The notes below the pieces were generated by a model. It saw only the letters and a list, made by a program, of their open reading frames with translations, did no database searches and was not told the DNA's origin. From IMG/VR virus record IMGVR_UViG_2698536576_000002: a stretch of 26,379 nucleotides of DNA. One strand, written 5' to 3'. This document shows, one piece after another, positions 6,957 through 16,038 of the stretch (its first letter is position 1; each line of letters opens with the position of its first letter). The translations under genes were made by a program, and so were the position numbers. The DNA comes from a virus. Its lineage: Duplodnaviria > Heunggongvirae > Uroviricota > Caudoviricetes.

Positions 6957-7376
6957 TTAAGAGGCTTTTTGTTTTTTCTTTCGTGCTAACTCTTCGTAAA
7001 TTGCATTGTACTTCTGTTTTTTCTCCTCAAGAGTTTTTAAAAGTTCATCTGTCTCACTGTCAGGGAGCTCGTCCAGAAGGTCAATGATGATTTTTTGTCT
7101 TGGATTTAACTCCTGATAGAAACGTATCTGTCCACTTTCTTCTGTATCCTCTCCCAAAAGATAGGTTGGTGTTGTTCCAATGAGTGTTGCTAATTCCCTT
7201 AATTTCTCTCGGCGAGGAATTGTTTCACCATTAAACCATTTGCTAACCGCTTTTGGTGTTAATTTCATTCGACGGGCAATTTCTGCCTGCCTTCCATGTT
7301 GTTCATAACCAGCGTTTTCACAGGCTAGCGCAAGCCTACTGGCGAACTCTTTACGCGCTTTATCTTCATGAACCAT
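6957..7376 (-). CDS. racR: Prophage repressor, XRE-family helix-turn-helix (RacR-like by position), 139 aa
   Basis: ORF 6957..7376; HTH segment QAEIARRMKLTPKAVSKWFNGETIP; charged, coiled-coil-like C-terminus; divergent from the cro-like gene. Confidence 0.6.
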   Translation of the reverse strand: MVHEDKARKEFASRLALACENAGYEQHGRQAEIARRMKLTPKAVSKWFNGETIPRREKLRELATLIGTTPTYLLGEDTEESGQIRFYQELNPRQKIIIDLLDELPDSETDELLKTLEEKKQKYNAIYEELARKKKQKAS

Positions 7377-7455: not shown

Positions 7456-7710
7456 ATGAACCAGAAAACACTTGAAGATGTAATCAAAACTGTTCGCGTT
7501 TCTGTTGTGGCCGACGTTTGTGGTGTCAGCCAAAGAGCAATCTACAAATGGATGGATAACGGAAAATTGCCTCGCACAGAATATACCGGCGAAACAAATT
7601 ACGCTGAAAAAATCGCTCATGCATCAAACGGATTATTTTCTGCCGATGCAATTTTAACTATTGGCAGAAATAAAACTACTACGAAAAAGCTGATGGGAGT
7701 TGATTCATGA
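7456..7710 (+). CDS. Cro-like small HTH regulator (YdaS-like by position), 84 aa
   Basis: ORF 7384..7710; start MNQKTLEDVIK with GAGGATGA upstream; HTH segment VADVCGVSQRAIYKWMDNGKLP; stop overlaps the next start (ATGA). Confidence 0.6.
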   Translation: MNQKTLEDVIKTVRVSVVADVCGVSQRAIYKWMDNGKLPRTEYTGETNYAEKIAHASNGLFSADAILTIGRNKTTTKKLMGVDS

Positions 7711-8129
7711 AAATCAAGCATGAGCACATCGAATCAGTGTTGTTAGCCCTGGCAGCCGAAAAAGGGCAGGCGTGGGTCGCTAACGCAATTACTGAAGAAT
7801 ATCTGCACCAGGGGGGCGGCGAATTGCCCCTGGTACCAGGCAAGGACTGGAACAATCAGCAGAATATCTATCATCGTTGGTTGAAAGGTGAAACGAATGC
7901 GCAAAGGGAAAAAATTCAGAAACTGATCCCTGCGGTTCTGGCAATTCTTCCTCGCGAGCTGCGTCACCGACTCTGCATCTTCGATACCTTGGAACGCCGT
8001 GCATTACTGGCGGCACAGGATGCACTGAGTACGGCAATTGATGCGCATGATGATGCAGTCCAGGCCGTTTACCGTAAAGCACATTTCAGCGGCGGCGGTT
8101 CTCCTAGCGATTCTGTCGTAGTGCATTGA
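7707..8129 (+). CDS. ydaT: YdaT-like protein (CII-position), 140 aa
   Basis: ORF 7707..8129 MKIKHEHIESVLLALAAEKGQAWVANAITEEYL; translationally coupled to the cro-like gene. Confidence 0.65.
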   Translation: MKIKHEHIESVLLALAAEKGQAWVANAITEEYLHQGGGELPLVPGKDWNNQQNIYHRWLKGETNAQREKIQKLIPAVLAILPRELRHRLCIFDTLERRALLAAQDALSTAIDAHDDAVQAVYRKAHFSGGGSPSDSVVVH

Positions 8130-8142
8130 TTGAAATTAATCG

Positions 8143-8164
8143 TACCGAACTGTTTTGTTCGGTA
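8143..8164 (+). other. Hairpin TACCGAAC-N6-GTTCGGTA after ydaT (no clear U-tract)
   Basis: Perfect 8-bp inverted repeat read from sequence, 14 nt after the ydaT stop. Confidence 0.3.
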
Positions 8165-8174
8165 TCAGTTAAAT

Positions 8175-8615
8175 GTAACGCTGCGAGCGTTACAAGGTGA
8201 AAACAAATGGCTTCAAACTGGATAAAGCTCGAAGTTATTACGCCGGATAAGCCGGAAATATTCAGGCTTGCTGAGATTCTGAATATTGATCCAGATGCCG
8301 CATTAGGGAAAGTCATTCGCTTCTGGGCATGGGCGGATCAACAAATGATAGACGGTAACGCAGAGTGTAACGCTCGAGGCGTTACAAAAAGTGCAATAGA
8401 CCGTATCACTTTTATGGCTGGTTTTGCTGATGCGTTAATTCAGGTTGGATGGCTGGTCGAAAGTGATGGAGTGCTTTCACTACCAAACTTTGAGCGTCAT
8501 AACGGAAAAAGCTCGAAAAAACGGGCGGTTACAAACGAGAGAGTTACAAAAATACGCGAACTGAAGCGAAAAGGTAACGCTGCCAGCGTTACACAAACGG
8601 ATCAAAAAGCGTTAC
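8175..8615. repeat. Iteron-like set: three 19-bp palindromes GTAACGCT-N3-AGCGTTAC (8175-8193, 8367-8385, 8574-8592) plus half-sites (8525-8532, 8541-8547, 8608-8615)
   Basis: Read from sequence; first copy 14 bp upstream of the ydaU start, the others inside its 5' third. Confidence 0.55.
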
Positions 8616-8995
8616 CAGAGGAAGAGGAAGAGGAAGATATAAATACTGATCTCCCCCTAAATCCCCCTCGGCAAAAACGAGCGTCTAAACAATTCGAGCC
8701 GGAGGCCATTGCTCTGCCCGACTGGTTGCCAGAAACACTCTGGAATGAGTGGGTCCAGTTCAGGCAGGCATTGCGAAAACCGATTCGAACGGAGCAGGGC
8801 GCTAACGGGGCGATACGGGAACTGGAAAAATTCCGCCAGCAGGGTTTTACCCCTGAGCAGGTGATTCGACACAGCATCGCCAATGAATACCAGGGCTTGT
8901 TCGCGCCGAAAAGTGTTCGGCCTGAGACGTTGCTCCGACAGGTTAACACTGTCTCGTTTCCGGACAGTGCGATCCCGCCAGGCTTCAGGGGGTAA
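8207..8995 (+). CDS. ydaU: Replication initiator-like protein (YdaU-like, O-position), 262 aa
   Basis: ORF 8207..8995; AAGGTGA RBS; acidic linker EEEEEED; precedes a DnaC-like gene. Confidence 0.65.
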   Translation: MASNWIKLEVITPDKPEIFRLAEILNIDPDAALGKVIRFWAWADQQMIDGNAECNARGVTKSAIDRITFMAGFADALIQVGWLVESDGVLSLPNFERHNGKSSKKRAVTNERVTKIRELKRKGNAASVTQTDQKALPEEEEEEDINTDLPLNPPRQKRASKQFEPEAIALPDWLPETLWNEWVQFRQALRKPIRTEQGANGAIRELEKFRQQGFTPEQVIRHSIANEYQGLFAPKSVRPETLLRQVNTVSFPDSAIPPGFRG

Positions 8996-9001
8996 CTGAC
9001 C

Positions 9002-9748
9002 ATGAAAAATATTGCGACAGGCGGCGTTCTGGAACGTATCCGCAGACTGGCCCCGCCACATGTAACCGCGCCATTCAGGACGGTGGCGGAGTGGCGCGAG
9101 TGGCAACTTGCAGAAGGCCAGAAACGTTGCGAGGAGATCAATCGCCAGAATCGTCAGTTGCGGGTGGAAAAAATTCTGAATCGCTCCGGCATCCAGCCGT
9201 TGCACCGCAAATGCTCGTTTTCGAATTACCAGGTGCAGAACGACGGCCAGCGATACGCGTTGAGCCAGGCGAAATCCATCGCCGATGAACTGATGGTCGG
9301 GTGTACAAATTTTGCGTTTAGCGGAAAACCTGGTACCGGAAAAAACCATCTGGCGGCGGCTATCGGGAATCGCCTGCTGAAAAACGGTCAGACAGTGATT
9401 GTGGTTACCGTGGCTGATGTTATGAGTGCTCTACACGCCAGCTATGACGACGGGCAATCAGGCGAAAAATTTTTGCGGGAACTGTGCGAAGTGGATCTGC
9501 TGGTTCTTGATGAAATTGGCATTCAGCGCGAGACAAAAAACGAGCAGGTGGTACTGCACCAGATTGTTGATCGCCGGACAGCGTCGATCCGCAGCGTGGG
9601 GATGCTGACAAACCTGAACTATGAGGCCATGAAAACATTGCTCGGCGAGAGGATTATGGATCGGATGACCATGAACGGCGGGCGATGGGTGAATTTTAAC
9701 TGGGAGAGCTGGCGCCCGAATGTTGGTCAGCCAGGAATTGAGAAGTAA
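9002..9748 (+). CDS. ydaV: DnaC/IstB-like AAA+ helicase loader (YdaV-like), 248 aa
   Basis: ORF 9002..9748; Walker A GKPGTGKNHL, Walker B LLVLDEIG. Confidence 0.8.
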   Translation: MKNIATGGVLERIRRLAPPHVTAPFRTVAEWREWQLAEGQKRCEEINRQNRQLRVEKILNRSGIQPLHRKCSFSNYQVQNDGQRYALSQAKSIADELMVGCTNFAFSGKPGTGKNHLAAAIGNRLLKNGQTVIVVTVADVMSALHASYDDGQSGEKFLRELCEVDLLVLDEIGIQRETKNEQVVLHQIVDRRTASIRSVGMLTNLNYEAMKTLLGERIMDRMTMNGGRWVNFNWESWRPNVGQPGIEK

Positions 9749-15884: not shown

Positions 15885-15960
<76 letters not shown>

Positions 15961-15963
15961 TAT

Positions 15964-16038
<75 letters not shown>

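Follow-up and report, generated by a model that had tools for sequence, protein, structure and literature searches.

Candidate initiator-binding iterons of a lambda-style origin within the replication-initiator gene of a Rac-type prophage

The question raised by the locus studied here is why a 19-bp palindrome should recur just upstream of, and repeatedly inside, the gene of a putative phage replication protein. The locus lies in the virus record IMGVR_UViG_2698536576_000002 of IMG/VR (class Caudoviricetes), a Rac-type prophage of which a stretch of 26,379 bp was analyzed; this whole stretch is hereafter called the window. A first-pass annotation, made from the letters alone, had proposed that the palindromes around the start of the replication gene are either origin iterons or autoregulatory binding sites. 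In this study we report that this proposal is supported by the conserved positions of the sites in homologous genes, by constraint acting on the DNA and by a low-GC (guanine plus cytosine) tract adjoining them. From comparative sequence analysis, the sites are probably the initiator-binding iterons of a lambda-style origin located inside the gene of its own initiator.

Repeats of the window and their conservation in homologous loci

The whole window was searched with the pattern GTAACGCTNNNAGCGTTAC, allowing up to three mismatches and using 100 shuffles as control. The palindrome GTAACGCT-N3-AGCGTTAC gave exactly three matches (0.04 expected; none of the 100 shuffles reached three), which confirms the three copies first described: those at 8175-8193 and 8574-8592 are perfect and that at 8367-8385 has a single mismatch. 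Their starts are separated by 192 and 207 bp, within the spacing of about 190-210 bp originally given. The window contains 12 copies of the 7-mer GCGTTAC/GTAACGC, against 2.6 expected and a number that none of 100 shuffles attained, and eight of these copies fall within 8175-8615. Additional half-sites are also present, two of them strong (GTAACGC at 8355-8361 and GCGTTAC at 8609-8615) and two weaker, of the form (G/A)GTTACAAA, starting at 8528 and 8543.

These sites form an upstream palindrome, U, and two intragenic clusters, I and II (Table 1). As had been stated, one copy precedes the gene start and the others lie inside. U is non-coding, between the ydaT-like stop (8129) and the initiator ATG (8207); it ends 14 nt before the ATG and is just 5' of the ribosome-binding site AAGGTG. 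The intragenic sites occupy codons 50-60 and 108-137 of the 262-codon open reading frame (ORF) 8207-8995, and the recurring peptides attributed to them were found in the protein as NARGVTK, NERVTK and NAASVTQ. In cluster I of the window a 12-bp insertion (4 amino acids) supplies an additional half-site. Cluster II extends from +321 to +408 relative to the gene start, in the DNA of the interdomain region that precedes the disordered linker, and its half-sites follow one another at 14-31 bp in the window, the range for the family being 11-25 bp. The working unit is the 7-bp half-site GTNACGC arrayed in helical phase, rather than the 19-bp palindrome alone.

Conservation in homologous genes, which the first-pass annotation had suggested as a check, was found. 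Homologues of the N-terminal domain were collected from 70 loci (one genome per species), from 80 loci of viral contigs and from named phages, and the counts refer to the 61 loci left after dereplication. These span Enterobacteria, Pseudomonas, Burkholderiales, Alcanivorax-like bacteria, Xanthomonas phages, Planctomycetes and Verrucomicrobia, including Akkermansia. Half-sites occupy the same gene-relative positions in homologues sharing only 30-70% protein identity, across phyla. The number of GTNACG/CGTNAC half-sites per 50 bp and locus was 0.8-1.7 at +100 to +199, 0.7-2.1 at +300 to +449 and 0.3-0.4 at -100 to -1, compared with a background of about 0.08, and the region of cluster II gave the strongest peak. 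The usual plan consists of a palindrome at +148/+161 (cluster I), present in most of the loci, followed by a > > < < run of half-sites at +345 to +405. Spacings of 11, 12 or 23 bp separate neighbouring half-sites that point the same way, and spacings of 14 or 25 bp separate convergent pairs. Clusters I and II are near-universal, whereas most lineages lack the upstream copy: 10 enterobacterial lineages, whose upstream genes differ, have a palindrome equivalent to U at -45 to -19, and it is absent outside the enterics and where the upstream ORF abuts the ATG.

An adjacent AT-rich element, which had likewise been suggested as something to look for, is present in the form of a polypurine, low-GC tract after the last site. 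The purine run starts 1-2 nt past that site in 30 of 45 loci and is from 10 to more than 30 nt long. Over the 45 nt counted from its start the mean GC content is 41%, compared with 54% for the gene, and the coding strand is 76% purine; in 34 of 56 loci the tract is within the lowest 5% of GC windows of its own gene. In the window, the tract at 8617-8645 has a GC content of 0.40 vs. 0.50 for the gene. Neither DnaA boxes nor an enrichment in GATC were found near the repeats. Cluster II (8528-8615) together with this tract likely constitutes the origin core, as judged from the sequence.

The sites are selected as DNA

The protein motif G-N-A-x-x-V-T (N51, A52, V59 and T60 in the alignment) is nearly invariant, and the codons that spell it are also fixed. 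The valine codon of the right arm was GTT in all 39 GTAAC-type loci, including genomes of 57-68% GC, against 11.9 expected from local codon usage. The glycine codon of the left arm was GGT in 29 of 30 (6.1 expected); at three other invariant glycines of the same genes usage is mixed, with GGT in 6/55, 21/57 and 6/60. Furthermore, the first residue of the motif may be G, C or S, yet its codon is always NGT (GGT, TGT or AGT).

Cluster II uses one DNA word in each of the three codon phases and in both orientations, with translation as GNA, VTx or xSR in one orientation and as VTx, ALP or RDx in the other. Of the 61 loci, 41 keep the junction GTNACC(A/T)AGAG, where the last half-site meets the polypurine run, and two reading frames are used across it, giving ALPE in 34 loci and VTRE in seven. 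All seven VTRE loci have GTGAC at the junction, which in the ALPE phase would create a TGA stop. In the GTGAC lineages it is the reading frame that is shifted around unchanged junction DNA. GTGAC-type junctions read as VTRE were recorded in loci L041, L049, L057, L064, L065 and L067. These data show that selection maintains the sites as words of double-stranded DNA, whatever the encoded protein, and it is very probable that what is selected is a set of protein-binding sites.

The symmetry of the sites is also maintained. Among 46 distinct sequences of the cluster-I arms, 92% of arm positions are complementary, and 11 cells have changed on both sides, a number reached by none of 500 shuffles. 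A left-arm change from AAC to CAC (Asn to His) is paired with a synonymous right-arm change from GTT to GTG. This switch is found in L035, whose nearest relatives are of the GTAAC type, and separately in the clade formed by L041, L057, L065 and L067, and in the CAC-type loci every other site has switched too. Thus, L041 carries GTCACG at +326, +337, +348 and +359 and CGTGAC at +372 and +383. Other lineages have their own variants: L056 has CTAACG/CGTTAG in both clusters, and L038, of the GTTGC lineage, has GTTGCGCT-N3-AGCGCAAC in both. The homologue of phage epsilon15 (32% identity) has lost cluster I and retains cluster II only, with GTCCGC, GTCCGC, GCGGAC and GCGGAC in 11-bp steps in its linker, followed by CAGAGAAGAGAAGAGAAGAGAAGATATTAAA.

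The epsilon15 half-sites are located at about 1834-1905 of locus L156, in gene AAO06105 ('DNA replication protein'), and precede a (GAGAA)n run. By its sequence, this GTCCGC/GCGGAC array is likely the origin of epsilon15, which is unannotated in its record.

The upstream genes, the C-terminal domains and the downstream genes vary among loci, and only the N-terminal domain always accompanies the sites. The joint switching of the sites of a locus, and the different versions found in different lineages, point to a co-evolving factor encoded by the element and not to a conserved host protein. The comparative data suggest that this factor is probably the encoded N-terminal domain itself. Residue 51 (N vs. 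H) is the sole alignment column that separates GTAAC-type from GTCAC-type proteins, and it was considered as a self-encoded specificity residue. This idea was rejected: L049, L015 and epsilon15 keep a type-specific cluster II without the loop, and the link between residue 51 and site type is forced by the genetic code, since codon 51 sits inside a site.

The initiator, its exchangeable module and related origins

In PHROG, the encoded protein falls in family 2509 'replication initiation protein' (E = 3e-89). No Pfam family matched it, and its N-terminal domain matched nothing in Pfam or NCBIfam. The predicted domain plan comprises an N-terminal winged-helix-like domain (amino acids 1 to about 100), a basic helix plus disordered linker (103 to about 175) and a C-terminal domain in common with K-12 YdaU, with a DnaT-like tail. 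AlphaFold2 models the N-terminal domain confidently, with helices at 16-25, 29-46, 61-68 and 73-80 and a beta-hairpin at 84-91, and the helix-helix-beta-hairpin unit is predicted to be winged-helix-like; the fold similarity of the domain to winged-helix domains is weak. Cluster I is encoded in a loop between helices 2 and 3 (amino acids 47-60) of low predicted local distance difference test (pLDDT) score, and cluster II in the basic helix and the start of the disordered linker.

At 50% identity the domain family comprises 6,588 clusters with E <= 1e-3 and 4,116 with E <= 1e-10, and it was encoded in only two of 72,556 plasmid records. In nine of ten distant loci the next gene codes for a DnaB-like helicase, a lambda-P-like protein, a DnaC/IstB-like loader or a primase-helicase, which supports an initiator role. 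Where the C-terminal domain is exchanged between loci, the partner gene is exchanged with it. With respect to identity as DnaT (primosomal protein I), NCBIfam PRK02854 scored 16.7 bits against a cut-off of 201 and covered the last 19 residues only, so the protein does not match the DnaT equivalog. Pfam DnaT was found in 11 of 37 relatives and is absent from the window protein, and a sequence search of solved structures returned only a marginal DnaT C-terminal match.

Table 1. Features of the initiator locus, in window coordinates.
Feature	Position	Strand	Basis or remark
Helix-turn-helix (HTH) repressor gene	6957-7376	minus	Gene order
cro-like HTH gene	7384-7710		Gene order
YdaT-family gene	7707-8129 (stop at 8129)		Gene order; precedes initiator
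Upstream palindrome U, GTAACGCT-GCG-AGCGTTAC	8175-8193	.	Perfect match, non-coding
Replication-initiator gene, 262 amino acids	8207-8995	+	PHROG 2509 match, AlphaFold2 models
Cluster I: GTAACGC (8355-8361) and palindrome GTAACGCT-CGA-GGCGTTAC (8367-8385)	8355-8385	.	Sites, codons, covariation
Cluster II: weak GTTACAAA half-sites (8528, 8543), palindrome (8574-8592), terminal GCGTTAC (8609-8615)	8528-8615	.	Half-site peak
Polypurine tract AGAGGAAGAGGAAGAGGAAGA (8617-8637), then TATAAATA	8617-8645	+	Candidate unwinding element beside the iterons
C-tract pair CCCCC-TAAAT-CCCCC	8653-8667	+	Membership in the feature uncertain
DnaC/IstB-like helicase-loader gene, ydaV-like	9002-9748	+	Pfam IstB_IS21 (E = 1.4e-19), Bac_DnaA

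The genes surrounding the initiator are listed in Table 1. The loader gene, presumed to encode the partner of the initiator, is followed by a DUF1627 gene. Positions 8100-9000 of the window are 100% identical to a Rac prophage beside ttcA in Escherichia coli strain AMSCJX02, where RefSeq labels the initiator gene 'hypothetical protein', and phages of the vB_EcoS-666R9 group share 96.6% identity across 7700-9100. In other Rac-like elements with a shared ydaT region, homology ends at about 8127-8134, at the ydaT stop. Alignment with K-12 ydaU is limited to 8634-9000 (86% identity) and starts directly after the polypurine tract, at about 8634. These two breaks delimit the segment from 8130 to about 8634 as one exchangeable module, which carries every one of the repeats along with the leader and the N-terminal domain. 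Accordingly, the name ydaU given to the gene in the first-pass annotation holds for its 3' part, from about 8634, and not for the repeat-bearing 5' part, which has no homology to K-12 ydaU.

Several other observations were made around the locus. The cro-like/ydaT region (7700-8134) shares 91% nucleotide identity with PP818812.1 (Actinobacillus phage vB_Apl-pPE4), whose recorded host is Actinobacillus pleuropneumoniae, a closeness to E. coli Rac unexpected for hosts so different. In the 77-nt leader before the initiator ATG there is a second perfect hairpin, TACCGAAC-N6-GTTCGGTA, at 8143-8164; its minus strand scores as terminator-like with a weak T tail, and its possible roles are those of an oop-like antisense terminator and of an mRNA element. 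Just beyond the polypurine tract, 11 of 61 loci contain at +420 to +500 a pair of C-tracts, CCCCC-N3-5-CCCCC, in many cases with GGGG after it, where 0.006 would be expected per 180 nt. The pair is read in two frames and recurs in K-12 ydaU; it might be one more element of the origin, or the DNA may just code for a PPxPP linker. At gathering thresholds the Rfam matches of the window, at 769-947 and 15885-16035, were only the RalA antitoxin small RNA (225 bits) and two adjacent prophage tRNA genes, and these tRNA genes are annotated as tRNA-Thr and tRNA-Gly in the E. coli genome identical over 8100-9000.

The closest known parallel of the arrangement is the origin of phage lambda, whose iterons are 19-bp imperfect inverted repeats located centrally in gene O, beside an AT-rich tract (PMC7466680). 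With the O gene starting at 38686, the four lambda iterons (39034-39118) occupy +348 to +432 and are followed by ACAAAAGAAAAAAGAAAAGATTATT, compared with +321 to +408 for cluster II. In both systems dyad-symmetric sites, whose arm symmetry is here upheld by covariation, lie inside the initiator gene, in the DNA for the linker between the DNA-binding and the partner-binding domains. In both, the sites are followed by a coding-strand tract rich in purines and AT, the helicase-loader gene is next, and related prophages exchange the iterons and the N-terminal domain as a single module. The differences are also clear. The locus studied here has 7-bp half-sites, mixed direct and inverted at 11-14 bp, where lambda has four adjacent iterons of 18-19 bp; it has extra site clusters about 200 bp upstream, in the DNA coding for the DNA-binding domain and, in some lineages, in the leader; and its polypurine run is (GAGAA)n or (GAGGAA)n, unlike the plain AT-rich stretch of lambda. 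Homology of the protein to lambda O was not detected: the hhalign probability was 0.15%, and Pfam Phage_rep_O gave no match to the window protein.

The Rac prophage of K-12 resembles that of the window in prophage type, in its ttcA neighbourhood, in the order repressor/cro-like/ydaT/initiator/DnaC-like ydaV and in the 3' half of the initiator gene. The two differ precisely in the N-terminal domain and the repeats: the N-terminal half of YdaU is unrelated (hhalign probability of the N-terminal profile, 0.09%) and lacks GTNAC sites. The swap is the lambdoid pattern in which N-terminal domain and iterons are exchanged jointly. An active origin of Rac, oriJ, has been reported (PMC3945230). In a place equivalent to that of cluster II, K-12 ydaU has repeats of its own, CAGATGTTCAA, at +352, +385, +418 and +430, with an inverted copy at +448 that extends to +458, and these are candidate iterons of oriJ on the basis of their arrangement. 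In locus L004 (ATG at 2005) they are at 2357, 2390, 2423 and 2435, with the inverted TGTTTGAACAT at 2453; an A-rich tract and a common CCCCCCCTAAATCCCCCC come after them, and homology to the window resumes right after the repeats.

Iteron plasmids have short repeated sites in helical phase beside an unwinding element, and direct and inverted repeats are combined in them. The systems of RepA, RepE and pi share with the window the phased repeats next to an unwinding-type element, and the initiator described here is predicted to be winged-helix-like. They differ in that the sites are here inside the initiator coding sequence, that the Rep-family search gave no sequence match for the window protein and that there are no DnaA boxes. 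Assignment to this class of systems was not supported, given the absence of a Rep-family match and of a promoter-like site at the upstream palindrome and the weak fold similarity to winged-helix domains. A combination of direct and inverted repeats could separate initiation from autoregulation.

Proposed origin, competing explanations and significance

From the data above the following mechanism can be proposed. The N-terminal domain would recognize GTNACGC, as a dimer on the palindromes and as monomers or oligomers on the direct repeats one helical turn apart. By analogy with lambda and from the conservation of its elements, the array at 8528-8615 would nucleate a complex similar to the lambda 'O-some', and the duplex would open at 8617-8645. 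The variable C-terminal domain would recruit the neighbouring DnaC-like loader and the host DnaB helicase, as suggested by the gene order and by the joint swapping of this domain and the partner gene. The palindrome at codons 50-60 and the non-coding copy at -32 would be auxiliary, either strengthening or looping the complex or limiting expression of the initiator. U, in particular, could act as a roadblock, as a translational operator or as the third anchor of a looped complex.

Several points weigh against this proposal and must be considered. The full palindromes are about 200 bp apart, whereas iterons of the lambda type adjoin (about 20-24 bp apart); if the core is at 8528-8645, as is likely, this concern applies to the auxiliary sites. 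Cluster II of the window has just three strong half-sites, and the tract that follows it is, at 40% GC, only modestly AT-rich with respect to its gene (50%). The loci compared are phylogenetically related, and their counts overstate the number of independent events. The searchable literature holds no binding or replication data for this initiator family, and nothing on these sites was found in that dealing with oriJ, ydaU, the origins of epsilon15 and phiV10 or the motif. Finally, the tail genes of the prophage are truncated, and its copy of the origin may no longer be in use.

Of the competing explanations, the one that survives best is that the sites are autoregulatory operators only, of the initiator or of another phage regulator, with the origin elsewhere. 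We consider it unlikely. The place of U beside the ribosome-binding site, 14 nt from the ATG, and its retention at -45 to -19 in the 10 enterobacterial lineages are what would be expected of an operator, and in iteron plasmids inverted repeats are commonly operators for Rep dimers. Nevertheless, no sigma-70-like promoter was found on the + strand in 8130-8206, which includes the upstream palindrome. In addition, it is the upstream copy that most lineages do without, clusters I and II being near-universal, and the helically phased direct repeats and conserved polypurine tract resemble an origin in a position matching that of lambda ori.

Binding by a different factor, either of the host or another phage protein, is improbable as well. 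A host factor conserved across phyla would not tolerate the concerted GTAAC, GTCAC, CTAAC, GTTGC and GTCCGC changes, no DnaA boxes are found nearby, and no neighbour other than the N-terminal domain is always linked to the sites. In favour of such a factor it can be said that, apart from the site-encoded residue 51, no column of the alignment splits GTAAC-type from GTCAC-type proteins.

Still less probable is that the palindromes work as hairpins of RNA or single-stranded DNA, for example to affect how stable the mRNA is, to control translation or to signal single-strand initiation. An 8-bp stem can form from each palindrome, arm complementarity covaries, and the leader (8125-8215) folds better than its shuffles (z = -3.4) with the U hairpin intact. 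However, many half-sites stand alone or as direct repeats with a spacing of 11-12 bp, and these are unable to pair; it is also the sequence itself, beyond its pairing, that is conserved across phyla. Moreover, Rfam gave no match near 8100-8700, and the terminator-like minus-strand matches, among them the palindrome at 8574-8592 and the hairpin at 8143-8164, do not exceed shuffle expectation.

As for the repeats being a by-product of a repeated peptide motif (NA..VT) needed by the protein, the near invariance of N51, A52, V59 and T60 would agree with it, but one perfect copy is non-coding, synonymous positions are fixed, one DNA word is read in three frames and the low-confidence cluster-I loop accepts a 4-amino-acid insertion and is lacking in epsilon15, L015 and L049, so that the non-coding copy and the codon-phase and synonymous-site data rule this explanation out for practical purposes.

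What would be new in a lambda-style origin inside the initiator gene, as the sequences suggest it, is its presence on a large and unrelated initiator family hitherto uncharacterized. It is possible, although we propose it only tentatively, that the locus is the archetype of an undescribed, phylum-spanning class of phage origins and initiators, with about 4,100 clusters (50% identity, E <= 1e-10) and no Pfam model. Such a class would have three traits. Firstly, the binding sites would lie within the initiator's own coding sequence, including that of a loop of its DNA-binding domain, and recombination could therefore not part origin from initiator. Secondly, a change of specificity would need coupled coding and site changes, such as AAC to CAC with GTT to GTG, and a change of frame avoiding TGA. 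Thirdly, the near-universal (GAGAA)n tract would serve specifically for unwinding or helicase entry and be read by the initiator or the loader, by analogy with the DnaA-trio elements of bacterial oriC.

If this reading is correct, an origin and a function would be assigned to a very common phage and prophage protein. The present annotations of this protein are inconsistent ('hypothetical', 'primosomal protein I' or 'replication protein O'), and it occurs in E. coli Rac variants, in epsilon15-like, Xanthomonas, Xylella, Pseudomonas and Ralstonia phages and in Akkermansia and Planctomycete prophages. The reading would also provide a rule for finding these origins, namely to look for GTNACGC half-sites that are in phase at +320 to +410 and precede a polypurine tract, and the natural specificity variants GTAAC, GTCAC, CTAAC, GTTGC and GTCCGC would serve for studying the co-evolution of initiators and their sites. 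With respect to Rac, its variants would carry at least two unrelated initiator/origin modules. In more general terms, the family would offer a clear case in which the code of a DNA-binding site overrides codon choice and even the reading frame.

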